64,000 nucleotides of DNA from Pseudomonadota bacterium (GTDB lineage: Bacteria > Pseudomonadota > Gammaproteobacteria > Steroidobacterales > SZUA-146). How positions within the stretch are numbered: the stretch's first letter is position 1; every line of letters starts with the position of its first letter. The stretch lies in assembly GCA_039028935.1 (NCBI GenBank), contig JBCCHD010000004.1, forward strand, positions 49,043-113,042, read 5' to 3'. Shown here in pieces: positions 10,391 through 43,545 of this stretch. The notes under the pieces are model-generated. The model searched no databases, had not been told where the DNA came from, and saw only the letters and a program-made list of their open reading frames with translations. A program made the position numbers and the translations under genes.

Positions 10391-10476
10391 CGATGCCGAC
10401 CAGAACAGTCTTGACCGTGCCACTTTACGCACACCCCTAAACGCCCATTGAGAGGACACTAGACAAGGAAACCGCG

Positions 10477-10800: not shown

Positions 10801-10918
10801 CGACCGTTTCCGCGCCCGCGACGTCAGTGTTCACGGGCACAGTGTCTGCGTGTGCGTGTTCTCTATCCAGCTAGCCCACCATGGGCAGAGTGACGCCTGC
10901 TCATAACGCGTCGTTGGG

Positions 10919-21659: not shown

Positions 21660-21968
21660 AGGACATTACTTCCGAATTAGAGGGGTTCGCGGACCCCTGA
21701 ACCTGATCGCGTACCGATATTGCGGCATTTATCCCGATATCGTTGTTTTTATTGGCTATTTGCACTTGCCCTGCGGTGAGCGACCGCTTGGATAGAGCTT
21801 AGCTTAGTTTTCCTTATCGTATCTTAACTTTTTGTTTTACAAAGCTTGTTTCGACATAAATGGCGCGCAACCAGCGACGTCGACATTTCAATGCGCGTCC
21901 TCCGGACACCCTGGGCGGCCGCTTAATCCGAGCCGACAGAGTATGTCGCGGCGCCAGTGAAGCCGCAG

Positions 21969-21982
21969 TGACAACGTTGTCG
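21969..21982. promoter_or_regulatory. LacI-family operator-like palindrome, site 3 (TGACAACGTTGTCG)
   Basis: Same motif as sites 1 and 2, in the GH16 / DUF885 divergent intergenic region. Confidence 0.6.
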
Positions 21983-22137
21983 GCTGAGGCCCTACGGCGG
22001 TCAAGTTTCACCGGCTGCACTGTAATCAATAAATAAAACATATGCTTATGTTTTGACATGGCCGTCGGTCATCGGCTGTGGCAAGCATTCGACCCATCGA
22101 CCTTCTGCTGGCCCGTTTACCTCACACTAACCATAGG

Positions 22138-22151
22138 TGACAACGTTGTCA
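22138..22151. promoter_or_regulatory. LacI-family operator-like palindrome, site 4 (TGACAACGTTGTCA, perfect)
   Basis: Perfect 14-bp palindrome, 169 bp from site 3 and about 250 bp upstream of the DUF885 gene. Confidence 0.7.
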
Positions 22152-22397
22152 ATCTAATGCCCGTAAAGGGCGAGCCGGGTCTGGCGCACGGTACTTTCGC
22201 GTAACGATGCGTGTCGATGGTGTTTACTAAACGCACACACTAATCCATGCGCCGCCGACCCGACTGGTCGGTGCGTGAACATCCCCAGCCCGCTTGATCG
22301 CCCGTCTCTGTGCTTAGCGCAACCCTTTGAGGCGGTGGTGCGTCATACTCATAAAATGCCCTTCTGCATTTCATCTATTTGTTTTTGAGGTACTACT

Positions 22398-24143
22398 ATG
22401 CGCACGATTCATCGCACCCGGCTGCTCTTTATTGCATTTTGTGGTTTCGCCCTTAACGCCATGGCATCCGACAACTGGGTCGAGACAAGCAATGCCAATG
22501 CGCAAATTGTTCTGAAAGCCATGGCCAAATACAGTCCCGAGGGAGCCGGTAGTCTCGGCGTGGATGGTCTCGACGAAGACATCAGTGTCTGGGACAAGGG
22601 GATTTACAAACGCTCTTTGGCCGACTTTGATGAAACGCTCAAAGCACTGAACAAAAAGCTCGATGACGAAACTCACCCGACCGTGCGTCAGGATCTTCAG
22701 ATTCTCATCAAAGCGATTGAAGACAGCCTGACGTCGACCAAACTCGATCGCGACAACATGCTGCCCTATTACAATGTATCGAGCACGGTCTTTAGTGGTA
22801 TTCGCGGCCTTATCGATCCGCAGATCCCTGCGGAACGCTACCCCGCTGCCATCGTGCGACTCAAGAAATACGCCGGCATTGAACGCGGCTATACGCCCAT
22901 TGTGGAGCACGCCATAGCACGCACCAAAGAACGCTTCAAAGTCAAAGGTCTGGTTGGCCCCTACAAGGGCGAAGTCGAACAAGACCTGGAACGCAGCGCG
23001 ACGTTTATCACCGGTATCAAAGAATTATTTGAGGGCACAGAGCTCACCGGCTGGGAAGAGGCTTACGAAACATTGGCCAAACAGCTCAACGACTATAACG
23101 ATTGGGTACGCGCCGAAATGCTCCCTCGCGCTCGCGAGGATTACCGCCTACCGAATGTTATGTATCGCGACGCGTTGAAAAATTGGGGCGTGGACGCGGA
23201 TCCAGAAGAGCTCATTAAGCGAGCCACAGCCGGCTATATGGACATCCGCAATGAAATGGAGGCGCTTGCGCCACTGGTTGCGCAAGAAAAAGGCTATGAA
23301 ACAAAAGATTATCGTGAGGTGATCCGACTTCTAAAAGAAGACCGCGTCACGGGTGACGCATTGCTGCCGTTCTATCGAGATGTCTTGGGCGAACTTGAAG
23401 ACATCATTCGTGCTGAGCGGCTCGTGAGCCTTCCGGAGCGCGAGGCCGGTATTCGCATCGCGACGGCGGCGGAAACAGCGCGACAGCCGGCCGCTCACCT
23501 GGATGTGCCACGACTGATCGGCAATACCGGTGAATACCCAACATTTGTTATTCCATTGCTAGAGCAAAACGAGGACGGTACCTGGCCCGAATCGGACGAT
23601 ACATACAAAGCCGGGGCATGGACACTCACCGCGCACGAGGCTCGACCGGGTCACGAACTGCAGTTTTCGAGCATGATCGAAGGCGGCGTGTCGATTACTC
23701 GGGGCGTCTTTGCGTTCAATAGTGCGAATGTCGAAGGTTGGGCGCTGTATGCCGAAGCCATCGCGAAACCCTATATGCCGCTCGATGCGCAAATGATCTC
23801 TCTACAGTACCGCTTAGCCCGCGCGGCGCGAATGTACCTCGATCCGATGTTGAACTTAGGTCGAATCACACCCGAGGAAGCCAAACGTATCCTCAAAGAG
23901 GATGTGGTGCTAGGCGAAACCTGGGCCCAGAACGAGATCGAACGCTACACCTATCGTATTCCAGGTCAGGCGACCGCGTACTATTACGGGTACCTCAATC
24001 TGCAAGCACTTCGAACTCAAACAGAAATCGCCATGGGCGAGGCGTTCGACGCTCAAGCTTTCCACGACTTTATTCTCGCGCAAGGACTGTTGCCGCCAGA
24101 CATCCTTGCGCAGGCCATTAGAGAGAAGTTTGTGCAAATGTAA
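22398..24143 (+). CDS. DUF885-family protein (putative secreted metallopeptidase-like)
   Basis: 581 aa with a signal peptide. The motif TAHEARPGHELQ resembles the HExxPGHxxQ signature I associate with DUF885. The family name is from memory. Confidence 0.65.
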   Translation: MRTIHRTRLLFIAFCGFALNAMASDNWVETSNANAQIVLKAMAKYSPEGAGSLGVDGLDEDISVWDKGIYKRSLADFDETLKALNKKLDDETHPTVRQDLQILIKAIEDSLTSTKLDRDNMLPYYNVSSTVFSGIRGLIDPQIPAERYPAAIVRLKKYAGIERGYTPIVEHAIARTKERFKVKGLVGPYKGEVEQDLERSATFITGIKELFEGTELTGWEEAYETLAKQLNDYNDWVRAEMLPRAREDYRLPNVMYRDALKNWGVDADPEELIKRATAGYMDIRNEMEALAPLVAQEKGYETKDYREVIRLLKEDRVTGDALLPFYRDVLGELEDIIRAERLVSLPEREAGIRIATAAETARQPAAHLDVPRLIGNTGEYPTFVIPLLEQNEDGTWPESDDTYKAGAWTLTAHEARPGHELQFSSMIEGGVSITRGVFAFNSANVEGWALYAEAIAKPYMPLDAQMISLQYRLARAARMYLDPMLNLGRITPEEAKRILKEDVVLGETWAQNEIERYTYRIPGQATAYYYGYLNLQALRTQTEIAMGEAFDAQAFHDFILAQGLLPPDILAQAIREKFVQM

Positions 24144-24163
24144 ACAAGGCCTTATCCAGCCCT

Positions 24164-24200
24164 AAGGCGCGTTTGGAGCTCGCTTCATTCGCGCCTTTTT
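24164..24200 (+). terminator. Possible terminator after the DUF885 gene
   Basis: AAGGCGCG ... CGCGCCTT stem with a long loop, followed by T5. Confidence 0.4.
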
Positions 24201-24292
24201 GTGTTGATCGATCGATTGCTCCGTATGCTAAGGTGTCGGGCCGCGTTGCGTACACAGCGGGCGAGGGTTAATGGCCCGATCAGGAGAGGCAC

Positions 24293-24559
24293 ATGGCAGG
24301 GGGATGGGCGCGCGACGGCGCCGTTCAGGAACAAATTGACGCAAGCGTTGAAGACGCCGTTAAACGCGCGCGCAGTCAGCTCGCCCGTGGCCCAGGACGC
24401 GAGCCCTGTGAAGAGTGTGACGAACTCATTCCCGACGCTCGCCGTAAGGCCGTGCCCGGTGTCACGCTCTGCGTTCAGTGCCAAGAAGAACTCGATGCCA
24501 GTCGACTCACTCAATCGGGTATCAACCGACGCGGCAGCAAGGACAGTCAGCTGCGCTGA
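24293..24559 (+). CDS. DksA/TraR-family C4 zinc-finger protein
   Basis: 88 aa with CEECDELIP...CVQCQ (CxxC-x17-CxxC), typical of TraR/DksA-type small proteins. Confidence 0.7.
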   Translation: MAGGWARDGAVQEQIDASVEDAVKRARSQLARGPGREPCEECDELIPDARRKAVPGVTLCVQCQEELDASRLTQSGINRRGSKDSQLR

Positions 24560-24690
24560 GCCTGTTCCGCGACACGACTCCTAGTCTGCACAATGTCGCC
24601 AAGACAACCGCGCATCGCACCGCGACGCCAAACTAACAAGCGCTCTTGACCCACTGTCTGCTCACGCCAATCCACCTTGCCGGATAACGC

Positions 24691-25860
24691 CTAGCGCCCA
24701 AACACGATACGTTCCGCGGCGGTCGCCTCGATCGTTGGCCAGTCGAGAACCAGACCGATGCCAGGCGTCGTCGGTGCGTGAACCGAACCATCCGGTTCGA
24801 GTGGAAACCGCGAACACCCCGCTAAATCGAAATCATGACGCGGCACGGGTACCTCAAAAAACGTGGAATTGTTCTGACCCAACGCCAAATGGAGATTCGC
24901 CGCCGTCGAAAACGATCCACCCCACGATTGCAATTCCACGTTCAAGCCGGCCTTTTTGGCCAAATTGAAAATGCCGAGCGCGGGCGTAATGCCGCCCGCG
25001 GTCGCCGCATCAATCCGTAACGCGCTCCAACACTGCGCGTCGATGGCCTGAGCCAGATGCGCCTGATCAACCACGCTATTACCGGCCGGTAAGATCGGCG
25101 TATCGACTTGTGCCTGTAGGCGCCGATACGCCGCCCAGTCATGATCATTAAACGGCGCTTCGAGCCAAAGAAATTCGGCATCAGACGCGACCTTCGCAAC
25201 CGCCAGCGCCGCGTCTTCGCTATACAACTCTTCCGCATCGAACATAAACTGACAGTCACTGTGTGCAAAGGCTGCTGTTACGGCCTCAATTAGCGCGATG
25301 TCGGACTCCGCCGTTGATTTGTAATGAAATTTAAACCGGCCAAAACCTTGGGACTGTAAACTCGATATGAGCTCGATGTACTGTTTTGGCGTATCCATAA
25401 CCGGCACGCTCGCATAGCAGGGAAGCTGATCGCGTGCATTACCCAGCAAGGTATAAAGCGGCTTGCCACATCGCCTTGCCAGTAGATCCCACAGCGCGAT
25501 ATCCACCACGGCCAGCGCGGGATTAGACACTCCCGGCCTGCGCTGGCTCATCCACCGCCAATGGTCGTCCACCGACCGAGATTGGCTATTGAGAAGCCCA
25601 ACGATGAGCGGACGCAGGCTATGCGCGACCGACAAATCCGCTCCGAATTCGGTGAACGTGCAAACACTTCCACCGCCCACGAAACCGTCTTCATCCTCGA
25701 CCTTGACAATGGTATCCGTGTTCAACACCTCGGGCATGACGGGCGACCAGGCGTACTCTGGCGGGGATTGAACTACGACGTATACCGTCACACGAGTGAT
25801 GGCGGCAAGTGGGTTAGGCGCGTGGCTCGCTGAGAAACTCGTGTTCATTTTCAGATACAT
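24691..25860 (-). CDS. Enolase-superfamily enzyme (mandelate racemase / muconate lactonizing enzyme family)
   Basis: 389 aa with N-terminal capping domain plus TIM-barrel pattern (FKFHYK, FMFDAEE, LEAPF, acidic metal ligands). Substrate unknown. Confidence 0.7.
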   Translation of the reverse strand: MYLKMNTSFSASHAPNPLAAITRVTVYVVVQSPPEYAWSPVMPEVLNTDTIVKVEDEDGFVGGGSVCTFTEFGADLSVAHSLRPLIVGLLNSQSRSVDDHWRWMSQRRPGVSNPALAVVDIALWDLLARRCGKPLYTLLGNARDQLPCYASVPVMDTPKQYIELISSLQSQGFGRFKFHYKSTAESDIALIEAVTAAFAHSDCQFMFDAEELYSEDAALAVAKVASDAEFLWLEAPFNDHDWAAYRRLQAQVDTPILPAGNSVVDQAHLAQAIDAQCWSALRIDAATAGGITPALGIFNLAKKAGLNVELQSWGGSFSTAANLHLALGQNNSTFFEVPVPRHDFDLAGCSRFPLEPDGSVHAPTTPGIGLVLDWPTIEATAAERIVFGR

Positions 25861-28900: not shown

Positions 28901-28983
28901 GATGAAAGCGGCAACGCCAGTAGCAATACCGCCAGTAACGCGGCAAAGCGACCAAGCCGCGAGCTGGATACAGGATTAATCAT
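25969..28983 (-). CDS. TonB-dependent receptor, Oar-like (N-terminal carboxypeptidase-regulatory-like domain)
   Basis: 1004 aa with a signal peptide. It has an Ig-like CarboxypepD_reg segment (VRGTVTSDSGDAIANAVVTVRNEQSGLTRSAVTDVNGEFAIRNLP). The TonB-box/plug start is EEVMVVGTR. The beta-barrel body ends in aromatic ...FGFQYDF. Confidence 0.9.
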   Translation of the reverse strand: MINPVSSSRLGRFAALLAVLLLALPLSSHAQTTSSAVRGTVTSDSGDAIANAVVTVRNEQSGLTRSAVTDVNGEFAIRNLPVGYDYSVSVSSDGFGSERVEGVSLNLGKTAAVNFDLASSGFTEEVMVVGTRQVVSEIAVGPSSTFGLEELELAPAINRNITDVIRADARIYVDESRGGINAVQCGGKNPRFNSLTVDGVRLNDSFGLNANGYPTERIPFSYDAINQVAVELAPFDVEYGGFSACNINAVTKSGGNEFFGSTFVDYTSDSLRADSLEGDSITSGDYTETRYGITFGGPIIKDRLFFFAAYEKLEGANLFDRGPIGSGAVNEVAVTQAELDEIVQIANTLYQYDPGGIPDSLDHEDDKLLIKLDWNISDRQRVAFTYNYNDGENFSTADGDLDEFEFQNHLYERGAELNSYAATLYSDWTSNFSTEIRLARVDLDNRQLTVGGTDFGEIRVELDDVDVYLGGDDSRQSNQLSYDVDTIALKGKYLWGDHEFTFGYEREEFDVFNLFVQHTETEIRFDGIENFRNGFADAIYYNNAPSNNPLDAAADWGYELNTLYFQDEFLATDRLTIVAGVRYDWYGTDVAPAENATFLADYGFSNSNTVDGEGLLQPRFGFTYEYSDNTTFRGGIGLYSGGDPNVWLSNNYSANNVLQFGQRGRSFGYTDGSRSLFDADVVYLGLEDGVPNGPGYGVPSELFNAVAMGVGDNFEINYLDPDFDLPSEWKYALGVTHILPQDYVLSADLLYTDGQDSAIVLRGDLEQTGTNPDGYPIYDSVREPSFVLTNSNVGNRSLNFSLGLAKAFENGFDFTVGYAYSDAEDVSPMTSSVAFSNYQNRAFFDPQEDIRSTSNYNIKHRFTFTTNYRRTFLDKYDATLSFYGAANSGRPFSYAFNGTIDPFGFTPFLDFRDNVLRPGDGRNTETGSWWRKVDMRLNVDFPGFREGHEVGVFMVVDNLTNLLNDDWGVLYQHNFPRTLELGTPESRVGDASRYEIRFGFQYDF

Positions 28984-29379
28984 AGTTAAGCCTCAAAACG
29001 ATTAAATGAAATCGATTCATCAGAGCGCTAGTCTGACTGATGCGCAAAATTGGATAGAGTGAGCGAGCGTTCTTGTCGACGTTAACCTACATCACATCTA
29101 ACAAAGCGCGGCGGCGGTCTTCGCCAAACGCCTGATGAAGCAAGTTATTTCCCCAAAGATGTTGGAAGATGAACTGGCCGGAGCCCCAATGCCTCCGACG
29201 GTGACGATCCTTCGTACTGCGTACTCTAAAGCGTCACTGCGAATGATACAAACGGATTGTTGCGGATTTCTGACACACTCAACGATCACCGTTGCGGCGA
29301 GCGTGTATCGCTCAACGTCATTCGCGCGCGTTCCCGTTGCATTTTCACGACATTAGCGTCGATTCAAAGAATCGGGATT

Positions 29380-29413
29380 AAAAAAAAGCCCTTCAACCGA
29401 AAGATTGAAGGGC
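29380..29413 (-). terminator. Rho-independent terminator (minus strand) with no annotated gene upstream of it
   Basis: On the minus strand, GCCCTTCAA-tctttcgg-TTGAAGGGC is followed by T8. The nearest minus-strand coding gene upstream is absent: the 29414-29878 region is non-coding. Confidence 0.75.
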
Positions 29414-29439
29414 GAGTATTTAGAAGAAGCCCGGCGTTT

Positions 29440-29690
29440 ATTATGCTCTTTTTTGCCTCTTCTCCTCTTCTCCTTGGGGGGACCAGAGTATTTCCGTTGC
29501 ACGTCGCTCTGCGCGTTGTCGAGCATGCCGAGTCCGTTTCACTCGTCATACTCGTTTCCCGTTGGCTGAAACACCTGGCAGGCCCGCGGGAGCGCGTCTT
29601 GTTGGCGGCTTTTACTGTCTACAAAGCAAGTCTTGGGCCAAGTTTGAGCTAACCCGCCCGAAATGCCCGATATCAGGCATTGGCTTATAA
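29440..29690. ncRNA. Candidate structured small RNA. It has local resemblance to 6S RNA (plus orientation), or alternatively is a terminator-ended minus-strand sRNA. Class unresolved.
   Basis: No credible ORF. Imperfect long-range stem 29501-29515 / 29585-29597. Hairpins at 29529-29545 and 29632-29642. A 21-nt polypyrimidine tract plus G6 at 29455-29481. See findings. Confidence 0.3.
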
Positions 29691-29878
29691 AAACTGTGAA
29701 GCGGTTCACACTATTGTGGCGATTTTCGTTGCGGTATCGGTGATTCGTGACGAGTCGTTCATAGCGAAAAAAAGTGATTTGTAAGAGAATTCGACGCTCT
29801 CAACACCCCGATGCCCATTCAGCGTGGGTTCAACACCTGCGCGTCATACTCACTCAACTGCTATAGGGAAGATGGCTT

Positions 29879-30511
29879 ATGAACTATCGATTGCACTACT
29901 TACTCGCCTGCCTCGGCGGTGTGAGTCTTTTGACGAGCTGCGCGTCTTTGAGTCCCGAGGAGTGCCTGGCTGCTGACTGGCGTGCCATCGGCTACGAGGA
30001 CGGGCTGGTCGGCAGCGCGGGACGTTTAGCGGCCCACCGCAAGGCGTGCGCCAAAGTGAGTGTCACGCCCGATCTCGATGAGTATGAGCGCGGTCGAACA
30101 GAAGGCGTGCGTCGCTTCTGTATCCCGACCAATGGCTTTGAGGCGGGTCGTCAGGGTCGTCAATACGAAGGCGTGTGCCCCAGCGACTTGGAAAGCGCAT
30201 TTCTCGAGGCGTTTGAAGACGGGCGCGCCTTATACGCGCTAGAGCAAATCGTGGACGATATCGAAGATCGCATCGACGATATCGAACGCGACATCGAGCA
30301 AGACGAGGATGCGATACGCGATTTAGAGCGCGAACTCGTCGACAACCCCGGCGACGCGAACAATCGTCAGCGCCTCGTGGATGATATTCGGCGCAAATCG
30401 CAGGACACGGAAGCGCATCGGATCGAGCTGGTTGTGCTCAATCGTGATCTGGTCGCCGCCGAACGCGATCTGGATGACTATCTGGACTTTCTCGGCGATA
30501 GCTACCGCTAG
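29879..30511 (+). CDS. Lipoprotein with N-terminal Cys-rich domain (DUF2799-like) and acidic coiled-coil tail
   Basis: Lipobox LLTSC. Repeated C..ADW..GY.DG / C.P.NGF.AG..G..Y.G.C pattern. The C-terminal half is highly acidic and helical. The DUF name is from memory. Confidence 0.6.
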   Translation: MNYRLHYLLACLGGVSLLTSCASLSPEECLAADWRAIGYEDGLVGSAGRLAAHRKACAKVSVTPDLDEYERGRTEGVRRFCIPTNGFEAGRQGRQYEGVCPSDLESAFLEAFEDGRALYALEQIVDDIEDRIDDIERDIEQDEDAIRDLERELVDNPGDANNRQRLVDDIRRKSQDTEAHRIELVVLNRDLVAAERDLDDYLDFLGDSYR

Positions 30512-33725: not shown

Positions 33726-34259
33726 ATGAAAATAAGTAAGTTTTTCACAGGTATGATCGCATCGCTGGCTGCAGCGTCTGTGTTCGCTATTCCTGTTGTG
33801 CTCGACATCACGTTTGACGATTTCCCGAACGAAACCTCTTTCGGTATCTGGGATGACTCAGCACTGGTTGGCGATATCTTCGCAGGTATCCCTTACGACG
33901 TTGACGCCAGCTCACCAATCGGCTTCGGCGACGGCTTCGTTCTTCCTGGCGACTTCGCCGGTGAAGGCCCTGGTCCTTGGCAGTTCGTTTGGGACCTGGA
34001 AGAAGGTGAGTACTTCTTCGCAATCTTTGATTCCTTCGGCGACGGCATCTGCTGCGGCTTCGGTAACGGCGAATACACGCTGACCGTTGACGGCGTTGAA
34101 GTGTTCTCAGGTGGCGAGTTCTTCGACATCGACCCTGTTGACGACAACGGCAACTACATCGGCAGCTTCACCGTTGCTGCAGCAGTTGCTGAGCCAAGCA
34201 CCCTCGCTCTGCTGGGTCTTGGCATGATCGGTCTGGCTGTGGCACGTCGCCGCGCCTAA
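33726..34259 (+). CDS. Small PEP-CTERM sorting-domain protein with a GDGICC-motif domain
   Basis: Signal peptide. Body with FDDFPNETSFGIWDD ... FAIFDSFGDGICCGFGNGEYTLTVDG. C-terminal anchor VAEPSTLALLGLGMIGLAVARRRA. Strong T/C-ending codon bias. Confidence 0.85.
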   Translation: MKISKFFTGMIASLAAASVFAIPVVLDITFDDFPNETSFGIWDDSALVGDIFAGIPYDVDASSPIGFGDGFVLPGDFAGEGPGPWQFVWDLEEGEYFFAIFDSFGDGICCGFGNGEYTLTVDGVEVFSGGEFFDIDPVDDNGNYIGSFTVAAAVAEPSTLALLGLGMIGLAVARRRA

Positions 34260-34281
34260 GGTCGAACTGCAATACCAAGAA

Positions 34282-34307
34282 AGCCCCGCCTTGTGCGGGG
34301 CTTTTTT
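34282..34307 (+). terminator. Rho-independent terminator
   Basis: AGCCCCGC-cttgt-GCGGGGCT hairpin followed by T6. Confidence 0.8.
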
Positions 34308-34347
34308 GTGCCCGCTCGTCGCATAACGTAATCTTGGTCCCTCTATC

Positions 34348-35820
34348 TTGTTCGGAATCACATTCAATATGACCCTTTTCCGCCTTGCTCGCGCGAACCC
34401 AACCACTCTGCGCACAATCCTTCTCGGCCCGATGCTGTTTGTTCTGCTCGCGGCCTGCGGTCCGAGCATCGATTTACCTGAGTTACCCGCTGTCGACACC
34501 AGTGCGTTGCTGGCGGACGTTGCGGATCAGCTCGACGCCAATCGAGCGCGGGTCGAAAAATCCCCTGGGAACGCCACGCTAGCTGGCCGTTACGGTCTGG
34601 TGCTCGCAACCTATGGACGCGATGAAGCCGCGGATGTCGCCTTTCAGCGCGCCCGATTGCTGGAGCCCGATGAAGCGCGCTGGGCGTTTTATCACGCCTT
34701 TGTGTTGCGCCGCTTGAGTCAGCCCGATGCGGCCCTTAGCGCCATCGAGGCCGGCCTGTCGGCGCAACCCGATCAAATCGACCTAGTGGTGAAGCGTGGC
34801 GAGCTGTTGTTTGATCTGGCGCGTTTCGACGAGGCAGAGGCCAACTTCGACCAAGCGCTGAATCGCAATCCCAAGTATCCGCTTGCGCAATACTACAAAG
34901 GTCGCATTCACATGACTCGGTCCGAGTGGCCTGAGGCGATCAAGCGGTTCGAGAATATGATCCAAGACGGCATTTTGGTTAACGAAGTGCATTTTAACCT
35001 CGCCACGGCCTATCGAATGAATGGCGACGCAGCGCTCGCCGAAGAGCAGCTCGCGCTCTCGCAAGGAGACAGCCAACTGAAGATTGCCGGCTTTGATCCG
35101 GTCAATATGAAGTTCGACACCCTGAATGTGGGCGACCAGCCTCACGTGCTGCGTGCGGCACGGCATTACCGAAGTGGCAACCTGAATGAAGCCATCGCTG
35201 AACTGCGACTCGCCTTTGACAAGAACCCAAATAACGCCGCGACCCACGCTAATTTAATTCGTATGTATGGCCAGAGCAGACAACTCGACAAAGCCATTGA
35301 GCACCACGAGCTTGGCAAGGCGATCGATCCCAACTATGCCTTGCTCGACAGCAATATGGGTTTTGCTTACGCCTCGTCCGGCGATTTCGCAAACGCCGTC
35401 GACGCATTGACTCGCGCTGCCGAGCAATCGCCCAATGACGCGGCGATACAGGCCGAACTCGGCTTTGCCTTGGGCAAAACAGGCCGGCTTGACGAGGGCA
35501 TCGAGCGCATGCAGCAGTCGCTGGAACTCAATGCCAATAATCGCGACTTGCGCTTTATATTGGGCGAGGCGATGGTCAAACAACGCCGTTTTCCAGAAGC
35601 CATCCAACTCTTCGAATCGGCCTTCGTACCCGGCGACCCCAAAACAGTCGCTATCATGCGTGCGTTAGCGCGCACCCATATGCTCTCGAGCAATCCGAGC
35701 GCCGCCGCGGCCACGTTAACCGATGCCATCGAACTTGCCGATTCGCTCGGCAAACCGGATATGGTTGAGGCACTCGAGGCCGATCTCGAGCGGGTGACCG
35801 TGGCTAGCTCGCCGAACTGA
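34348..35820 (+). CDS. TPR-repeat lipoprotein (paralog A)
   Basis: Lipobox LLAAC. TPR-like helical repeats throughout. It is collinear over its full length with the product of 37880-39271. Confidence 0.8.
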   Translation: MFGITFNMTLFRLARANPTTLRTILLGPMLFVLLAACGPSIDLPELPAVDTSALLADVADQLDANRARVEKSPGNATLAGRYGLVLATYGRDEAADVAFQRARLLEPDEARWAFYHAFVLRRLSQPDAALSAIEAGLSAQPDQIDLVVKRGELLFDLARFDEAEANFDQALNRNPKYPLAQYYKGRIHMTRSEWPEAIKRFENMIQDGILVNEVHFNLATAYRMNGDAALAEEQLALSQGDSQLKIAGFDPVNMKFDTLNVGDQPHVLRAARHYRSGNLNEAIAELRLAFDKNPNNAATHANLIRMYGQSRQLDKAIEHHELGKAIDPNYALLDSNMGFAYASSGDFANAVDALTRAAEQSPNDAAIQAELGFALGKTGRLDEGIERMQQSLELNANNRDLRFILGEAMVKQRRFPEAIQLFESAFVPGDPKTVAIMRALARTHMLSSNPSAAAATLTDAIELADSLGKPDMVEALEADLERVTVASSPN

Positions 35821-35848
35821 TTCAACTGGGTTTGCCGACATACTATCG

Positions 35849-37690
35849 ATGGCTCATAAGACTCTTGCGCAACGTTCGCCTTCCCGGCAACCCACAGCGA
35901 ATCCTTTCGCCAGCAGGCTCGTCATAGCGCTTTTATGCCTACTACCGTTGGCCTGCAGCGAACAACCCAATCCGCGCACACAGGACGGCCAACACGCGGA
36001 GCTCGGTGCGGCCGCCAGCGGGCCAACACTCACCACGCCAGCGTTCACCGACATTGCTGAGCAGTCTGGATTGTCTTTTTTTCACCACAGCGGCGCGACC
36101 GCGAAGAAGTTCTTTCCAGAAATTATGGGCAGTGGCGGCGCGCTCGTGGATTACGACAACGACGGTGATTTGGATGTCGTCTTAATTCAGAGCGGTCGCA
36201 TCAACCAAATTGATGACCCTCTTTTTCCCTTCGTTGACTCAACCAACCATGTCCAGCTCTTTCGCAACGATCTGCATCACGGCGCGCCGACGTTCACCAA
36301 TGTGACTGATACAAGCGGTCTTGTGCTCGAGGGTTACGGCATGGGGGTGGCAACGGGCGACCTCAACAACGACGGCTATGCCGACCTGTATCTCACTAAC
36401 GTTGGCACCAACGCGCTTTTTATCAACAACGGCAATGGCACCTTCACCGAGGCCGATGCGGGGATCGCGGATGATGACGCCGGCTGGTCCACCTCCGCGA
36501 GCTTTCTCGATTACGACCTCGATGGCCATCTCGATTTATTCATCACGCGCTATGTCGACGTTGACCTTGTAACGGGGCGCCGCTGCACCAGCAACGATGG
36601 CCAGCGCGACTACTGCTCGCCTGATGTGTACGTGCCATTGACCGATCTATTGCTTAAAGGTGACGGCTCAGGACGTCTTTCACCGGTTGAACGGTGGCAT
36701 GCCGGCGGTCCGGCACCGAGCACAGGGCTTGGTGTGATTGCCGCGGATTTCAACAGCGATGGCTGGACCGACCTGTATGTCGCTAACGACAAAAAGGCCA
36801 ACCAGCTCTGGATCAACCAAGCCAACGGCCTGTTTGAGGAAACGGCCGTGATGAACGGCAGTGCGTTTGACGCGAACGGCAAAGCCGAAGCGAGCATGGG
36901 TGTCACCAGCGGCGATGTCGACGCAGACGGTGACGAAGATCTGTTTATCACGCACCTTAAAGGCGAATCCAATACGCTGTACTTGAATCAAGGTAACGCG
37001 ATGTTTATCGATTCGACCATTGTCTTTCGGTTGTCGTCCAACAGCTTACCGTCAACCGGGTTTGGTACCGGATGGATCGATCCGGATAACGATGGCGACC
37101 TCGACCTATTTGCCGCGAATGGGGCCGTCATGATCGAGTCTAGCCAAATCAACACCGAGCCCTTTCCCTACGTGCAGGCGAACCAGCTTTTCGAGCAGAT
37201 CGAGGGCTTAAGTTTTGTCGACGCCAGCGCCCCGGCAGGCTTTGCCGATGAACGCCCTGAAATCAGTCGAGGTGCGGCATTTGGCGACATTGATAACGAT
37301 GGCGACATCGACATTCTCGTCACGAACAACGAGGGGCCCGTGCGTTTGTTGCGTAACGATCAATCCCATAACCATGCCTGGCTAGGCATCAGTGTACAGG
37401 GGGTCACCGCCAACCGGGACGCGGCCGGCGCACGCGTGGGCGTCGAACGGAACAATGCACCGACTCTGTGGCGCCGGGTCGGCACCGACGGCAGCTATCT
37501 GTCGGCCAATGACAAACGCGTACTGATCGGCCTGGGCGTCGATCCCTCGCTATCCGGTCTTGTGGTGAGCTGGCCAGACGGTCAAACCGAACGTTTTCCT
37601 ACGCCGACGCTAAATACGTTTATCACCCTGGTGCAAGGCGAGGGGCTGGACTTTTCCAGCGCTGAGCGCGACGTGAGCGGTACACCCTAA
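35849..37690 (+). CDS. CRTAC1-family lipoprotein (FG-GAP/VCBS repeats + ASPIC/UnbV C-terminal domain)
   Basis: Lipobox LPLAC. Repeated DxDNDGDxD(L/V) motifs (DYDNDGDLDV, DLNNDGYADL, DYDLDGHLDL, DFNSDGWTDL, DVDADGDEDL, DPDNDGDLDL, DIDNDGDIDI). C-terminal GARVGVE...GSYLSANDKRVLIGLG. Confidence 0.85.
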   Translation: MAHKTLAQRSPSRQPTANPFASRLVIALLCLLPLACSEQPNPRTQDGQHAELGAAASGPTLTTPAFTDIAEQSGLSFFHHSGATAKKFFPEIMGSGGALVDYDNDGDLDVVLIQSGRINQIDDPLFPFVDSTNHVQLFRNDLHHGAPTFTNVTDTSGLVLEGYGMGVATGDLNNDGYADLYLTNVGTNALFINNGNGTFTEADAGIADDDAGWSTSASFLDYDLDGHLDLFITRYVDVDLVTGRRCTSNDGQRDYCSPDVYVPLTDLLLKGDGSGRLSPVERWHAGGPAPSTGLGVIAADFNSDGWTDLYVANDKKANQLWINQANGLFEETAVMNGSAFDANGKAEASMGVTSGDVDADGDEDLFITHLKGESNTLYLNQGNAMFIDSTIVFRLSSNSLPSTGFGTGWIDPDNDGDLDLFAANGAVMIESSQINTEPFPYVQANQLFEQIEGLSFVDASAPAGFADERPEISRGAAFGDIDNDGDIDILVTNNEGPVRLLRNDQSHNHAWLGISVQGVTANRDAAGARVGVERNNAPTLWRRVGTDGSYLSANDKRVLIGLGVDPSLSGLVVSWPDGQTERFPTPTLNTFITLVQGEGLDFSSAERDVSGTP

Positions 37691-37879
37691 CTCGCCACTC
37701 GACTGCGGTGTTCGCAGCACTGATTCTGGTGCCAAGATTGATCGAACACATAAACGTGAACGGAGACACGCGGCATTCACGAGTACAAAGGGTATGATCA
37801 GTGCATGAACATCCAGACCCATTCGTCTGAGGCCGTCTTCCAGCTGATCAGCACGGCATGCCGTCGCGGGGCAATTCAA

Positions 37880-39271
37880 ATGCGAACGACACTCTGCACG
37901 CTATTGTTGTGTCTGTCCACAGGCTGCGCCAAGGTCCCCGAATTACCGCTGTTGCCGGTAGTCGATACCACGACGCTGCTGCCGGTCGTGGCCTCGCAGC
38001 TTGACGAAGTCAGAGCGCGATTGGAACGACACGATCAGGACGCCAACGTCAATGGCGAATACGGCCTGGTGCTGGCTACTTATGGTCGCGACCAGGAAGC
38101 CCGCGTGGCCTTCGAACGGGCACGATTACTCGCCCCCGACAACGATCGGTGGCCCGCGTTTCAAAGCTTTGTATTGCGCCGGCTAGGGCAGCCGGACGAC
38201 GCCCTCGAGGCGATTGACGCGGCACTCGCGCTCAGCCCCCACCAAGTGGATTATCACGTGCGGCGTGCCCAGCTTTTTTACGACGGTGGACAATTCGATC
38301 AAGCTCGACGTGTTGTCGACCACGTGTTGCACACACAACCCAACTATCCACTTGCCCGCTTCTATCTGGGCCGTTTGTTTATGATCGAGAACGAGTGGGA
38401 GCAGGCGATCACCCAATTCGAGGGATTATTGAAGTCGGGCATTGCGGTGGAAGAAGTGCATTTTAACTTGTCGCAGGCCCATCGCATGACCGGCAACGCC
38501 AAGCAGTCCGCCCATTTTTTAGCACTGGCGCAGCGAGGTGGCGCGCTGAAAATAAATGGATACGATCCCGTGTACATTCAGCTCGCGGGTTATAACGTCG
38601 GCGATCAGCCTCATGTCTTGCGCGCAACCCAGTACTATCGTCGCGGCAAGATTTCCGAAGCAGTCGCCGAGATGGCGATCGCACATGAAAAAAACCCAGA
38701 CAACATTGGCACCCACGTGCATCTGGTGCGAATGTACGGACACAATCGTCAGCTCGATAAGGCGCTCTTTCACTACGAGGCCGCCCGCAGCGTCGATCCG
38801 GAATTTAATCAACTCGACAGCAACTTGGGTTTCGCCTATCGCATAGCGGGAGACGATACAAAAGCCGCCGCCGCCTATCAGCGCGCCATTCGGTTGTCGC
38901 CATCAAGCGCGGATTTGCACACACAATTGGGGTTGGCGCTCGTGGGCGCGGGACAGAGCGAACTGGCCATTGCGCCCCTTAGCCGCTCACTCGAGCTTGC
39001 ACCGGGTAATCGACGCGTGCAAATAGAACTGGGGGAATTACTGCTGGATCATCAGCGCTTTGAAGAAGCAATGACGCTGTTTGATCAAAGTTTAGAACCT
39101 GAAGATCAAATGACCGTAACTGTGTTGCAACGTATCGCGACGGCGCATGAGCAATTGGGTAATCCTGCTGCGGCGCGCGGCGCGCTCAGCAAAGGTCTTG
39201 CAATTGCTGAACAATACGGCAACGACCAACTGGCACAATCGCTGCGCGATAAGATCGGTCAGCTCCAATAA
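37880..39271 (+). CDS. TPR-repeat lipoprotein (paralog B)
   Basis: I chose the ATG at 37880, giving MRTTLCTLLLCLSTGC (lipobox). TPR repeats; full-length paralog of 34348-35820. Confidence 0.8.
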   Translation: MRTTLCTLLLCLSTGCAKVPELPLLPVVDTTTLLPVVASQLDEVRARLERHDQDANVNGEYGLVLATYGRDQEARVAFERARLLAPDNDRWPAFQSFVLRRLGQPDDALEAIDAALALSPHQVDYHVRRAQLFYDGGQFDQARRVVDHVLHTQPNYPLARFYLGRLFMIENEWEQAITQFEGLLKSGIAVEEVHFNLSQAHRMTGNAKQSAHFLALAQRGGALKINGYDPVYIQLAGYNVGDQPHVLRATQYYRRGKISEAVAEMAIAHEKNPDNIGTHVHLVRMYGHNRQLDKALFHYEAARSVDPEFNQLDSNLGFAYRIAGDDTKAAAAYQRAIRLSPSSADLHTQLGLALVGAGQSELAIAPLSRSLELAPGNRRVQIELGELLLDHQRFEEAMTLFDQSLEPEDQMTVTVLQRIATAHEQLGNPAAARGALSKGLAIAEQYGNDQLAQSLRDKIGQLQ

Positions 39272-39377: not shown

Positions 39378-40934
39378 TCAAGCAGACGGCTTACTTTTCT
39401 GGCGCGCACAATAATCCTTAAGTGCTTCATCCACCGCTTCATCGATGGGAGGCGGCGTGTAGTCCGCCAGTAGCTGCCGATAAATCGCGTTGGCCTTTTG
39501 AGGCGCGGTCGGCTCGCCGGCTTCTTGCCACGTTTCGAAATTCCGCCAGTCGGAAATGAGTGGCGAATAAAACGCCGACTCGTAGCGTGCCTGAGTGTGC
39601 GGCGTACCGAAAAAGTGACCACCGGGACCGACGTCGGCAATGGCCTCCAGTGCCAACGTCGAATCATCGACATCAAATTGTTCCAGATACGTAGCCACCA
39701 TTTGCAGCAGATCGGCATCGAGCACCATTTTTTCAAACGAGGCACACAGGCCGCCCTCCATCCAGCCGGCACCGTGCATCAGCATGTTGGTCTGCCCCAT
39801 CACCGCACCCCACAGTGCAAACACCGATTCGTACGCCGACTGAGCATCCAATGAGTTGGCCGCGTTCACATTCGATGAGCGATAGGGAAGCCGATAATGC
39901 CTGGCAAGCTGGCCGCCGGCCTGGGCCGCGAGCATGTATTCGGGTGTGCCAAATGCCGGTGAGCCGGACTTCATATCGACATTAGAGGTAAACCCACCGT
40001 AGACCACCGGGGCACCGGGGCGTACCGTCTGAGCAAACGCGATACCGGCCAGCGCTTCGGCATTTTGCTGTGCTAACGCACCGGCCAAGGTGACGGGCGC
40101 CATCGCTCCCGCCAACGTAAAAGGCGTTACCACCACAACCTGATTTCGACGCGCCATTTCGATAATGCCCGTCAGCATCGGTTCGTCGAGCACCAGCGGC
40201 GAGTTAGTGTTGATAATCGTCACTAAGCTCGGCTGTTCATCCAGCGCTTCGTGACTCAGCCCGCGTGCCAAGCGAATCATCTCGAGCGCATCTCGGTTGC
40301 GCGCTTCACCCAGCGAATAGATGGTAAACACCTTGTCACTCAGCGTCGCTAAATCGTAAATGGCATCGAGGTGACGTGTGGCTGGGTCCAGATCGATCGG
40401 CTCGACGGGGTAACCACCAAACAAATGCACAATATTCAGGCTTTGGCCGAGTCGAATAAAATTTTGAAAATCACGCCGATTACCGCTGCGACGACCGCCG
40501 TCGAGATCGGACGCGTTGGGCGCGCTGGCGACAGAGCACACATTGAGGTGGCGACCACCCATGGTGAGATTGTGCGCGGGGTTTCGCGCATGCAGCGTAA
40601 ACGATTCGGGAGCACGACTGATCGCGTCCAGGACAAAGTGGCGATCGAGCTTTACGCGCGGCTCGCCCTGTGACACGTGGACGCCTGCACGAGCGAGAAT
40701 GGCTCGAGCCTCATCTAACAAAAATACCATTCCCTGCTCTTCAAGAATCGTCAAAGAGGCATGGTGTATGGCCTCAAGCTGCTCAGGACGGAGCACCTCG
40801 GCTGGCGGCAGCTGGAGCTTGAGTTGACGCCACGGTGGCTGCGGCAAGCGACCGCTGCGCTCGGCACGACGCGCCTTGCGGCCGGCCTGACGTCGTGCGC
40901 GACGTACGGGATGCTCAGATCGGGACATAGCCAC
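39378..40934 (-). CDS. MttB-superfamily (trimethylamine methyltransferase-like) methyltransferase, non-pyrrolysine type
   Basis: 518 aa with a basic N-terminus (RRARRQAGRKARR), followed by EQLEAIHHASLTILEEQGM and a TIM-barrel-length body typical of MttB homologs. No in-frame TAG. Confidence 0.75.
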   Translation of the reverse strand: MAMSRSEHPVRRARRQAGRKARRAERSGRLPQPPWRQLKLQLPPAEVLRPEQLEAIHHASLTILEEQGMVFLLDEARAILARAGVHVSQGEPRVKLDRHFVLDAISRAPESFTLHARNPAHNLTMGGRHLNVCSVASAPNASDLDGGRRSGNRRDFQNFIRLGQSLNIVHLFGGYPVEPIDLDPATRHLDAIYDLATLSDKVFTIYSLGEARNRDALEMIRLARGLSHEALDEQPSLVTIINTNSPLVLDEPMLTGIIEMARRNQVVVVTPFTLAGAMAPVTLAGALAQQNAEALAGIAFAQTVRPGAPVVYGGFTSNVDMKSGSPAFGTPEYMLAAQAGGQLARHYRLPYRSSNVNAANSLDAQSAYESVFALWGAVMGQTNMLMHGAGWMEGGLCASFEKMVLDADLLQMVATYLEQFDVDDSTLALEAIADVGPGGHFFGTPHTQARYESAFYSPLISDWRNFETWQEAGEPTAPQKANAIYRQLLADYTPPPIDEAVDEALKDYCARQKSKPSA

Positions 40935-41099
40935 TCACCCATTTTCACTGTCTTGAGACTACTTTGACCCCGGAACCCAATGTTGCGCAGGCGCGCCACG
41001 CACATGTTAACGCTAGACCCACCCCAACCATTACTCTGTGCGAGCGCTACCGCCGGCGGGACACCAAGATCGACAGAATCGGCAATGGGAGGAAGACAT

Positions 41100-41127
41100 A
41101 AAAAAAGGGCGGTGCTCAGCACCGCCC
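41100..41127 (-). terminator. Rho-independent terminator 165 nt upstream of the mttB-family start codon
   Basis: On the minus strand, GGGCGGTGC-tgag-GCACCGCCC is followed by T7. It is weaker in the plus orientation (TTTTCC). Confidence 0.75.
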
Positions 41128-41133
41128 TTTTCC

Positions 41134-41560
41134 AGTCAGATGATCGACTTGCCTTGAGAACACGTTCTCAGTGCGGTCGCGTTTTAGACTTCGGCTCACA
41201 GGTCAGGCACATGTCCTGCAGCTGCCTCGAAAGCTAGGCTTTCTTCGGCCTTCGCCTTTGTGTCGCCACGCATGCGAAGCTGTGTCCGGGCAAGGTTACG
41301 TTTCCCTTGCATGCTTCTTTATCGACGCGTTGTCTACGTCCCCCGCCCTCTTCACGCCGGTCGCGAAGTGACGAGTGTCGGTTCAGGGCCGTTTCGACGA
41401 ACCCGCGACCGTAAGGCCGGTGTTCTATCGCGTCGTTAACGACGCGCGGCGTGCGTCCGAACCGTTGGCCACTGCTTGGTTACGTGGCCCGCCCCATTCC
41501 AAGCTGGAGCATTTGGTGTCTGGGTTTGGCGAATGGCCAATTCCTGCACCGTTGAAACTA
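41134..41560 (-). ncRNA. Candidate long structured non-coding RNA or 5' leader (riboswitch-like) preceding the mttB-family gene. Class unknown.
   Basis: About 430 nt, GC-rich, with no credible ORF on either strand. It is bounded by terminators at 41682-41712 and 41100-41127. Multiple hairpins: 41429-41446, 41467-41489, 41291-41309, 41156-41169. The strand is inferred from terminator polarity. Confidence 0.35.
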
Positions 41561-41681
41561 GGTTAATGCAGTTAGCCGGCCTTTGTCATTACAATAACCT
41601 GTATAAATGCTGTGGAAAACTCTGCGGCAGTGCAATCACTCATCAATATCCTACGACGCAAAAATCGCCCACTGCGCAAAT

Positions 41682-41712
41682 AAAAAAGCACAGCCGTATG
41701 AAACGGCTGTGC
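41682..41712 (-). terminator. Rho-independent terminator after the SPFH gene (bidirectional shape)
   Basis: GCACAGCCG-tttcata-CGGCTGTGC is followed by T6 on the minus strand, and by TTTTC on the plus strand. Confidence 0.75.
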
Positions 41713-41761
41713 TTTTCGGTATGCAGCATTTGCGTAGGCGAAACGCTTACTTTGCAAATGA

Positions 41762-42727
41762 CTAGCTACGTGATGGGAAGGGTGGCGTCGGCGGCGTCGC
41801 CACACCACTACCGGGATTACCTTTCGCAATATTCGTAGCCAACGCAATCATGCCAGAGAGATCGCCCAGGTTGGCCGGCACCACTAACGTATTGCCCTCT
41901 TTCGCAAGCTGTCCAAACTGCTCGATATACTGCTGTGCAACCTTCAACTGCATGGCTTCGTTACCGCCGTCGGTCACCAGCGAGCTGGCCACCTCGCGCA
42001 AACCCTGAGCCGTCGCTGTCGCCACCGCCAAAATCGCCTCGGCCTCACCTTCGGCTTCGTTGATCTGCTGCTGCTTTGCCGCTTCCGACTCTTTAATAAC
42101 GCGCTGCTTCTCACCCTCAGCATTGTTGATCTGCGCGTCGCGCTCACCCTCGGAGGTGAGAATCACTGCACGCTTCTCTCGTTCGGCTCGCATTTGCTTT
42201 TCCATCGCGCCCAGTACATCGCGCGGCGGGTTAATATTTTTGATTTCGTAGCGCAATACCTTTACGCCCCAAGGGTCAGATGCCTTGTCCAATTCCTGAA
42301 CCACATTGGCATTGATCGTGCTGCGTTCTTCAAAGGTGCGATCAAGTTCGATCTTACCAATCTCGCTACGCAGCGTGGTTTGCGCGAGCTGCGAAATGGC
42401 GAACTCGTAGTTACCAATCCCATACGACGCGCGACGTGGATCAAGCACCTGTAGATACAGCACACCGTCGACGCCCACCTGAACGTTGTCGCGGGTAATG
42501 CAAATCTGTTCATTGATATCCGCGGCACGTTCCTTCAGCGAATGTTTGTAGGCAATGCTGTCCAGAAAGGGAATCAGAATATGAAACCCAGCGCCCAACG
42601 CACGATTAAATTTACCCAGGCGTTCGACAACGTACGCACTCTGCTGCGGAACGACAACCGTGGATTTGAAGAGTATGACAAGGGCCAGAACGACAAGGCC
42701 GATAACTGCCACTGATAAGCTTTCCAT
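41762..42727 (-). CDS. SPFH/band-7 (stomatin/paraslipin-like) membrane protein
   Basis: N-terminal TM helix. SPFH domain (VPQQSAYVVERLGKF..., TLRSEIGKIELD), then a coiled-coil Ala/Glu-rich region. Confidence 0.85.
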   Translation of the reverse strand: MESLSVAVIGLVVLALVILFKSTVVVPQQSAYVVERLGKFNRALGAGFHILIPFLDSIAYKHSLKERAADINEQICITRDNVQVGVDGVLYLQVLDPRRASYGIGNYEFAISQLAQTTLRSEIGKIELDRTFEERSTINANVVQELDKASDPWGVKVLRYEIKNINPPRDVLGAMEKQMRAEREKRAVILTSEGERDAQINNAEGEKQRVIKESEAAKQQQINEAEGEAEAILAVATATAQGLREVASSLVTDGGNEAMQLKVAQQYIEQFGQLAKEGNTLVVPANLGDLSGMIALATNIAKGNPGSGVATPPTPPFPSRS

Positions 42728-42841
42728 AATGTTCCTCTCTTTAACGTTCCTTAATGATCGAAGGATTGACTTCGCCAGCGCGCCGGCTCAGTCCGTCACT
42801 TCGACGACCGATAGCTGAATTAGGGGCAAGTGCCCAGGAGT

Positions 42842-43282
42842 CTATGCGTCCGTGCCGACGTAGAGCGTCAGACCTTCCGAACGATTAATTTGAACACGGG
42901 CGCCGCGATCGATGGCATTGGCCCCTTCATTGACCACCGTCCATTTGGACCCTCGATAACTCACTCGACCGACTTCTCCGGCTTCGATGGCCGTATCAAG
43001 GGTGAGAAACTCACCAGCCACCCCTTCGCGATAGCCGGGAGAGTTACCGTGGATTTTGGTGTGAAGCGTTTTGCGCAGCGAAAACATGGAGACCAGTGAA
43101 AAAACGGCAAATGCAGCCCACTGAGCGCCGGGGGCTAGATCGAGACCAACCGCACCGAGCAGGCCGACCGCGATGGCAGACAGACCCATAAAGACCAAAT
43201 AAAACTGCGCCTCGATGGCGAAAATCTCCACCGATAGCAGCAATAAGCCCAACGCTACCCAGTACCACCATTCCATAGACAT
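42842..43282 (-). CDS. NfeD-family membrane protein
   Basis: 146 aa with 3-4 TM helices plus a C-terminal OB-fold-like soluble domain (GRVSYRGSKWTV). It is in the classic NfeD-SPFH operon arrangement. Confidence 0.8.
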   Translation of the reverse strand: MSMEWWYWVALGLLLLSVEIFAIEAQFYLVFMGLSAIAVGLLGAVGLDLAPGAQWAAFAVFSLVSMFSLRKTLHTKIHGNSPGYREGVAGEFLTLDTAIEAGEVGRVSYRGSKWTVVNEGANAIDRGARVQINRSEGLTLYVGTDA

Positions 43283-43545
43283 TCTCCGTTGTTGAGGACC
43301 TCTATTATACTAAGTCTCGGTTTTTTAAGCAAAAATTTCGGAAGTCACTGGTAAATAGAGATTTTTTATTCCACCAATCTAGTCATTTTCCTTATATTGC
43401 AGAGCAGCAACATCAGGTCACACCCCCGCCGCGCGTTCCGTCGATGATCAAGCTTCATTTTTACATAATTCGTTCATTATGCGCACCGCGGGCGGGGGGG
43501 CTCGCGAGACTGGGGTGGACGGGCGCCCAGCGGTCGCCTGGGTCG

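Follow-up and report, generated by a model that had tools for sequence, protein, structure and literature searches.

A candidate gene for a large structured RNA linked to nfeD-SPFH in uncultured Gammaproteobacteria of a narrow clade

Bacterial non-coding RNAs (ncRNAs) which are longer than about 400 nt and have a conserved architecture are few; those that are understood are ribozymes, ribonucleoprotein scaffolds or central regulators, and several are unsolved. The “orphan” RNAs raiA, ROOL and GOLLD came from comparative genomics, as conserved intergenic regions with covariation and without an open reading frame (ORF), and GOLLD and ROOL are often associated with phages. The OLE RNA (about 600 nt, RF01071) is tethered to the membrane via OapA. 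It is described as part of a ribonucleoprotein complex that includes OapC (PMC9723947). In this study we analysed a stretch of 64 kb (hereafter the window) from the assembly GCA_039028935.1 of a gammaproteobacterium, and in particular the gap of 827 nt (40935-41761) that separates a gene for an MttB-superfamily methyltransferase (mttB) from an SPFH/Band_7 gene (SPFH), which is preceded by nfeD. Positions are those of the window, and the element and its neighbours lie on the minus strand (SPFH-sense). We consider it likely that positions 41100-41553 (possibly from about 41573) are a genuine stand-alone gene for a structured ncRNA of about 455-475 nt. The RNA belongs to a family not described so far, of a kind already known: the clade-restricted large structured ncRNA genes, with OLE, raiA, ROOL and GOLLD as analogues.

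The element and OLE RNA have in common that both are large (>400 nt), consist of many hairpins, are highly conserved in places and are stand-alone bacterial ncRNAs confined to one clade. However, OLE RNA is found in Firmicutes and the present element in Gammaproteobacteria, their gene neighbourhoods differ, and Rfam searches revealed no match between them in sequence or structure. With raiA, ROOL and GOLLD the element shares the conserved intergenic position, the covariation and the lack of an ORF; unlike them, it has no Rfam match, is known so far from only six lineages and was not found in viral, phage or plasmid records. We found no description of this RNA in the literature.

None of the 4227 models of Rfam 15 matched at its gathering score anywhere in the window. 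At a relaxed threshold (E<=10; positions 40850-41850, both strands) only low-scoring small RNA (sRNA) models appeared, mostly on terminator hairpins, and there was no riboswitch among them; in four homologous loci, the search at E<=1 yielded only terminator-driven noise and no cobalamin riboswitch. ARAGORN detected no tRNA or tmRNA genes, and these two candidates were dismissed. The element also resembles the sRNAs of the CsrB/RsmZ type, which are gammaproteobacterial, stand-alone, rich in hairpins, a few hundred nucleotides long and equipped with conserved sequence ahead of the promoter. In contrast to these, its 8 GGA triplets in about 455 nt are close to the expectation from composition and are placed outside hairpin loops, the only match to PrrB_RsmZ (11 bits) falls on the terminator, and the element contains no GacA-box palindrome. 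A Csr/Rsm-type sRNA was rejected for lack of GGA enrichment. A phage or plasmid origin was also considered, and the element had no match in IMG/VR viral contigs, phage records or plasmid records. It is present as a single copy in the window, with none in 95 other loci, and a repeat or mobile element was rejected on this ground.

Relatives of the locus were gathered in two ways, via mttB, which gave distant loci, and via SPFH, which proved productive. The closest SPFH homologs (83-86% amino acid identity) come from gammaproteobacterial metagenome-assembled genomes and from metagenomes; the label Woeseiaceae, a family abundant in marine sediments, appears among homologs that are slightly more distant. 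In four further lineages, represented by the loci L085 (with its Logan twin L086), L087, L089 and L090, the element lies directly after an SPFH gene of this identity range. The long gene-free stretch which follows SPFH in L085/L086, L087 and L089 matches window positions 41714-41100 at 65-67% identity (blastn), and L090 was found by means of a DNA pattern taken from the most conserved block, a metagenome scan with this pattern having given that one locus only. Another locus, L096 (SPFH 85% identical), carries the SPFH terminator and the first conserved block, and then its contig ends. The element is absent after SPFH in L088 (84% amino acid identity; a convergent gene 290 nt after SPFH) and in L091-L095 (78-83%; a convergent gene within about 30 nt of SPFH).

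Across the element the window is 64-67% identical to its relatives, with invariant blocks of up to 13-25 nt; in the SPFH coding sequence (CDS) the identity in a nucleotide alignment is 72-74%, with saturated third codon positions. Conservation restarts about 30 nt after the SPFH terminator, proceeds through about 455 nt of alternating invariant and variable segments and stops at the U-tract of the second terminator, downstream of which the identity to L087 and L090 is 32-37%, i.e. the sequences are unalignable. The preliminary description of this gap, made from the sequence of the window, had named a lack of conservation among relatives, or decay from a gene, as grounds for giving up its reading; we found instead a conserved element without translated similarity. 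Both outer flanks vary. Upstream of nfeD there is an aldehyde dehydrogenase gene in the window versus a flavin reductase gene in L085 and L089, and the downstream context of the element also differs among lineages, so that nfeD-SPFH is the only gene linkage common to all six lineages. The element is inherited together with nfeD-SPFH; its carriers are uncultured Gammaproteobacteria of one narrow clade, and among named groups the Woeseiaceae are closest to them. Such a linkage is compatible with a functional connection between the element and the SPFH/NfeD system, yet vertical descent in so narrow a clade accounts for it just as well.

The element folds into a conserved chain of hairpins (P1-P9, Table 1), with a long-range helix that closes a domain of three hairpins and a highly conserved central core. 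The structure, obtained with RNAalifold on a plain MAFFT alignment (A3), contains 116 pairs. Its best fully compatible stack is the long-range helix P4, which covaries at 6 of 7 pairs and is paired in 100% of cells; in the five sequences it reads CGGUUCG/UGAACCG, CGACAUG/CAUGUCG, CAAUACG/UGUAUUG, CAGCUUA/UAAGCUG and CGACAUA/UGUGUCG. In the nulls no stack exceeded 3 covarying pairs (60 column shuffles) or 2 (the 966 columns of the SPFH CDS), and the alignment of syntenic regions proposed in the preliminary description has in this way revealed compensatory changes beyond those of shuffles. The layout of three hairpins within P4 and the order of the hairpins were reproduced in folds of the individual sequences. 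The 18-nt palindrome noticed earlier at 41429-41446 is real: it is the window's own version of hairpin A, the variable first hairpin of the P4 domain.

The three other hairpins named in the preliminary description (GGCCAC/GTGGCC, CAAGG/CCTTG and GAGAAC/GTTCTC) were also found where it had placed them, in helices kept in the relatives (P3, P7 and P9a, respectively). In P7 and P9a the window copy itself shows compensatory changes; the CAAGG/CCTTG of P7 is replaced by CGAGG/CCUCG in relatives, and five pairs of P9a have changes on both sides. P3 is less regular (88.6% of cells paired), with one compensatory pair kept in the window and four other positions mispaired there. The core has a mean column identity of 87%, with compensatory pairs in P5a and P7, and such pairs also occur in both terminators. 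Moreover, the apical loop of P2 is complementary to that of P3 over 6-7 nt in 4 of 5 sequences (in one of them via a G-U pair; the complementarity is lost in L090), which suggests a loop-loop contact (kissing loop or pseudoknot). Apical loops of the GNRA type (GAAA, GUAA and GCGA in relatives, A3 columns 437-446) suggest tertiary contacts. One helix proposed by RNAalifold (A3 columns 39-45 with 393-399) is weak and was not relied on, as it is rich in G-U pairs, contains a mismatch in every sequence and would lie within the promoter spacer.

Across alignment A3, 93.9% of cells are paired and 22 pairs show changes on both sides, compared with 1-5 after a shift of the partners by 1-3 columns, which also lowered the covariation score from 0.207 to 0.04-0.055. 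With RNAalifold the element had a consensus energy of -116.9 kcal/mol; 60 column shuffles gave -48.8 ± 5.0, which corresponds to z = -13.5, while the same test on three windows of the SPFH CDS gave z values of -0.3, -0.5 and -2.6. The fold of the RNA body as a single sequence (41132-41553) had z = -2.9 for the minus strand, compared with -1.4 for the plus strand; among 42 control windows of the same length from the 64 kb the mean z was -0.64 (sd 1.18), and 1 of the 42 reached -2.8, which suggests a modest signal of fold stability. On the SPFH-sense strand there are 53 G-U cells and 512 of 545 cells are paired, versus 15 and 474 of 545 on the opposite strand. The G-U pairs, the U7 tail and the single-sequence z value agree on the SPFH-sense (window minus) strand.

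The element is not protein-coding. The gap had been described as gene-free, and our analysis bears this out: it contains short mechanical ORFs only, and its six-frame translations have no Pfam or NCBIfam match at E<=1. Substitutions in gap-free blocks of the element are distributed evenly over the alignment phases (p 0.07-0.78), as opposed to 81/34/328 in the SPFH CDS (p=4e-74), and the indels of the element are not multiples of three. A search by tblastn for remnants of the genes flanking the closest mttB relatives (538-aa protein, LysR, DctP) found nothing in the gap; this test for a pseudogene covered the Pfam and NCBIfam families and the neighbours of the mttB relatives, the six-frame translations not having been searched against large protein databases. 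The earlier remark that the element is GC-rich holds only marginally (0.595-0.625 versus 0.52-0.655 in the neighbouring genes).

Several open frames of 60-140 codons can be read on either strand of the gap, and the small ORFs considered there (a plus-strand frame at 41171-41566 with a single TGA and an open stretch on the minus strand) are not conserved as frames. Another apparent frame, ...(A)EFSTAFIQV(I/V)(V/L)(M/V)T, crosses the promoter block (41580-41690, minus strand; columns 105-215 of alignment A2); its C-terminal part is conserved across lineages, and a deletion of 27 nt in L090 is in frame. Such open frames, the seemingly conserved peptide and the in-frame deletion would suit a region that acts at the DNA level or a slowly evolving intergenic remnant without functional RNA (including a decayed gene or a gene for a small protein). 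We judge this explanation very improbable. The only start of the EFSTAFIQV frame is a GTG inside the stem of the SPFH terminator, no usable start codon is present in the relatives, and the third positions are invariant over 24 nt, which indicates constraint at the level of nucleotides and not of the peptide; the frame was rejected as a gene. The lack of three-nucleotide periodicity and of protein-family matches argues in the same direction, and neither the long-range compensatory changes of P4 nor the strand-specific G-U pairs are expected of a DNA site.

The block upstream of P1 follows the almost invariant pattern CTGA(A)nTCGCA.TGC..CAGAGTTTTCCACAGCATTTATACAGGTT..(A/G)TGACA, which occurs once in the window, and we infer that the RNA is transcribed from a sigma-70-like promoter within it. 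Two candidates can be proposed. P_A has an extended -10 (TGnCATAAT) in relatives, and TTTATA-16-(TG)CATAAT was called by the promoter scanner in L090 and L089 (9/12 matches, TG present); in L085 and L087 its -10 is weaker (CATAAC), and the window has a degenerate form of it. P_B, read by eye from alignment A3, takes the form (A/G)TGACA-18-TAANCT in all five sequences. The TGACA and the T1 and T6 of the -10 are invariant there (A2 in 4 of 5), and conservation is lowest in the spacer. No promoter of the element was called by the scanner in L085, L087 or the window. The A/T-rich stretch upstream, which is invariant, may be an UP element or an activator site. On these grounds the 5' end of the RNA would lie near 41573 or 41553, just before P1, and its 3' end at about 41100-41103, giving a length of about 455-475 nt. 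The gap upstream of nfeD, which is AT-rich (40% GC), contains a near-consensus sigma-70 promoter (TTGCTT-17-TATAAT; 43304-43332, minus strand); given such a canonical promoter in this genome, the weak hexamers before the window copy of the RNA are conspicuous.

Both terminators listed in the preliminary description proved to be perfect 14-bp inverted repeats followed by U6 and U7, respectively. That of the nfeD-SPFH operon is kept, with compensatory changes, in L085, L087, L089, L090 and L096, and a terminator scanner found it in 4 of 4 relatives scanned (L085, L087, L089 and L090). That of the RNA is kept in L085, L087 and L090, including one compensatory change from G-C to A-U, and was called by the scanner in L085 and L090 (not in L087). 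The first of these terminators bears on the view that the element is a part of the nfeD-SPFH transcript, i.e. an RNA processed from its 3' untranslated region (UTR) after read-through, with no promoter of its own. In favour of this view, the element follows SPFH immediately in every case and shares its strand, and its window copy has weak promoter hexamers only. However, all six lineages have kept a perfect 14-bp stem with U6 that separates the element from SPFH, and the 30-40 nt which follow it are not conserved, whereas the next conserved block holds sigma-70-like hexamers that were called by the scanner in two relatives. A 3' UTR origin is therefore, in our opinion, decidedly improbable. 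An additional GC-rich hairpin (GUCUGGCCGC...GCGGCCAGAC) is situated between the SPFH stop codon and the conserved terminator in L085 (5977-6006), L087 (1994-2023) and L089 (about 3325-3355), and the window lacks it.

The preliminary description left the choice between an independent sRNA and a leader of mttB. The former finds support in the covarying helices, the promoter-like hexamers, the element's own terminator and the linkage to SPFH; the latter, in the form of a riboswitch or cobalamin leader, does not. According to this alternative, the element would be a long 5' leader in which the RNA senses a ligand (B12, betaine or methylamine) and the terminator at 41100-41132 serves as expression platform, read-through leading into mttB. 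MttB-family enzymes use corrinoid partners, which would make a B12 switch sensible, and the order of parts (an element, then a terminator, upstream of mttB) is that of a cobalamin riboswitch. The mttB gene follows on the same strand, 165 nt away in the window (counted to a GTG; the annotated product P0001 begins at ATG 40928, the probable start) and 128 nt away in L087 (75% amino acid identity), and no promoter was called in the window spacer (40935-41099).

Several lines of evidence nevertheless make a leader of mttB unlikely. No riboswitch family matched at any threshold, and the cobalamin models (RF00174 and its clan included) gave no match at E<=10 in 1 kb on both strands, by which a cobalamin or other riboswitch was rejected. 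The cobalamin-like order of motifs reported earlier likewise received no support. The motifs in question are not the conserved columns: AAGGGAAAC, GGCGAAGGCC, GAGCCGAAGUCU and CAGGACAUGUGCCUG differ between lineages in A3, AAGGGAAAC being located in a covarying stem-loop, and the blocks that are invariant, e.g. GCGGGGGACGUAG..AACGCGUCG, are unrelated to the consensus of the B12 box. The element, at about 455-475 nt, is two to three times larger than a cobalamin riboswitch and far beyond known riboswitch lengths. Its terminator, far from the start codon, is itself highly conserved as a perfect 14-bp stem, and conserved antiterminator pairings were looked for without success, the best being 6-bp stacks at chance level. 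Moreover, the spacer between terminator and mttB is long (128-172 nt) and unconserved (32-37% identity), in L087 it has plausible promoter hexamers of its own (read by eye), and the 282 nt downstream of the element in L090 are not mttB.

The distribution of the element tells equally against such a leader. The relatives of mttB are distant (70-76% amino acid identity at best; 70% in a scan of genome contigs, with the element in none of 80 loci). We examined 82 other mttB loci, namely these 80, with up to 4 kb of upstream flank, together with L081 and L082, and the element was absent from all of them, including those of the closest mttB relatives (76%). An nhmmer profile of the whole element and a covariance model of its core (R1) matched only at SPFH-linked loci; R1 scored 101-111 bits on five members versus at most 17 bits elsewhere in 806 kb, the 82 mttB loci included. 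We conclude that mttB is a solitary neighbour and not demonstrably part of the element's unit. The closest mttB homologs (76%; L081, i.e. ERZ26778559 NODE_81, 557-5978, and L082) are found in another cassette, composed of LysR, a 538-aa protein without a Pfam domain, mttB and a DctP-type TRAP solute-binding protein.

The interpretation as a stand-alone ncRNA gene has to be weighed against a number of observations. In both cases where a downstream gene is visible at close range (the window and L087), this gene is mttB in the same orientation. Transcription itself and both ends of the RNA are predicted from sequence, and neither promoter candidate is clear-cut: a well-formed P_A in L089 and L090 contrasts with a degenerate one in the window, and P_B is weak everywhere. 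Only five homologous sequences, of which one is partial, and a single fragment are available; they all represent the same narrow clade and do not suffice for a significance test of the R-scape type. As a structure derived from and scored on the same few sequences inflates the counts, the identical pipeline was run on the SPFH CDS; it yielded 10-15 covarying pairs, so that the 22 of the element are only 1.5-2 times as many. Such a raw count is weak, and the case for the structure therefore rests on the controls at the level of helices and of consensus energy (column shuffles). Finally, all sequences come from metagenome assemblies, whose contigs often break in or near the element.

These breaks were recorded individually. 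Two Logan contigs of the source sample stop at window positions 41229 and about 41280, L086 and L089 (end 3869) finish inside the element, L096 (end 1249) at the first invariant block, and L085 (end 6684) 22 nt after its terminator. Possible reasons are near-identical k-mers common to co-occurring strains, or strain variation in the variable region.

If the element is an ncRNA gene, the following course of events can be proposed. The RNA would be transcribed from the sigma-70-like promoter in the upstream block, would fold into the conserved hairpin chain and would end at its own strong intrinsic terminator. It would then act in trans, most likely as a protein-binding or scaffold RNA, and not as a cis switch for mttB; this is our best guess, suggested by the size of the element, its many conserved unpaired stretches and its strong, unconditional terminator. 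The precedent of OLE RNA makes a partner in the membrane scaffold (SPFH/NfeD) conceivable. By analogy with OLE and its Oap proteins, the element could stand for a so far unknown class of large structured RNAs, acting in physical association with the SPFH/NfeD (stomatin-type) scaffold as a membrane-associated ribonucleoprotein in Gram-negative sediment bacteria, a conjecture which we regard as unlikely.

The function of SPFH/NfeD operons in bacteria is poorly understood, and the proposed gene, if real, would add a new family to the RNAs open to structural and biochemical work and would connect, in a testable way, an RNA with a membrane-microdomain system. It would also correct the annotation, since the element would not be a B12 riboswitch and the mttB gene found here should not be assumed to be regulated by B12. 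The immediate impact is limited by the narrow known distribution of the element and by the absence of a functional clue.

The coordinates of the element, its structural parts and its neighbours are collected in Table 1. The lack of an internal stop codon in mttB indicates a non-Pyl (non-pyrrolysine) member of its superfamily.

Table 1. Features of the predicted ncRNA locus (positions in the 64-kb window)
Feature	Position	Strand	Remarks
Predicted structured ncRNA	41100-41553	-	About 454 nt (about 474 nt if the start is 41573); conserved hairpins P1-P9 and own terminator
Conserved upstream block (putative promoter/regulatory)	41554-41656	-	Near-invariant GAGTTTTCCACAGCATTTATACAGGTT and TGACA; alignments A1, A2, A4
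Promoter candidate P_A	41580-41607	-	TTTATA 41607-41602, 16-nt spacer, degenerate window -10 CAAAGG 41585-41580; predicted start near 41573
Promoter candidate P_B	41560-41589	-	ATGACA 41589-41584, 18-nt spacer, TAACCT 41565-41560; predicted start near A41553
P1 hairpin (GGUGC...GACACC)	41515-41550	-	Stem invariant in 5/5; 11-nt apical insertion in the window
P2	41510-41506/41495-41491	-	Apical loop AGCUUGG
P3 (GGCCAC/GTGGCC)	41488-41482/41473-41467	-	Apical loop CCAAGCU
P4 domain	41379-41464	-	Long-range helix 41464-41458 with 41385-41379, closing three hairpins
Most conserved core	41290-41376	-	P5/P5a 41376-41341; P6 (GACGU...GCGUC) 41340-41324; P7 (CAAGG/CCTTG) 41310-41290
P9 (AGUC/GACU) enclosing P9a	41134-41190	-	P9a holds GAGAAC/GTTCTC 41156-41169
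Intrinsic terminator of the predicted RNA	41100-41132	-	Arms 41103-41116/41118-41131, perfect 14-bp stem, U7 41100-41106
Spacer between RNA terminator and mttB	40935-41099	-	Not conserved; unalignable with L087 and L090
mttB (MttB-superfamily methyltransferase)	39378-40934	-	Pfam PF06253 (MTTB) 1e-197, one uninterrupted stretch
Intrinsic terminator of the nfeD-SPFH operon	41684-41716	-	Arms 41684-41697/41703-41716, perfect 14-bp stem, 5-nt loop, U6 41682-41687
SPFH/Band_7 gene	41762-42727	-	
nfeD (NfeD)	42842-43282	-	Precedes SPFH
nfeD-SPFH operon	41762-43282	-	Sole neighbour kept in every element-bearing lineage

Several further stretches of 500-900 nt in the window lack a long ORF (coarse map, ORFs of at least 150 aa), namely 10390-10919, 21680-22371, 24143-24691 and 28983-29879, and Rfam gave no match in them at the gathering threshold. 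Downstream of the window mttB lies a convergent TPR gene. The region 33726-39271 (plus strand), convergent with mttB, is occupied by a cluster of genes for TPR-repeat and FG-GAP/ASPIC-UnbV proteins, which adjoins the gene for a protein with a weak PEP-CTERM (exosortase-sorting) domain.

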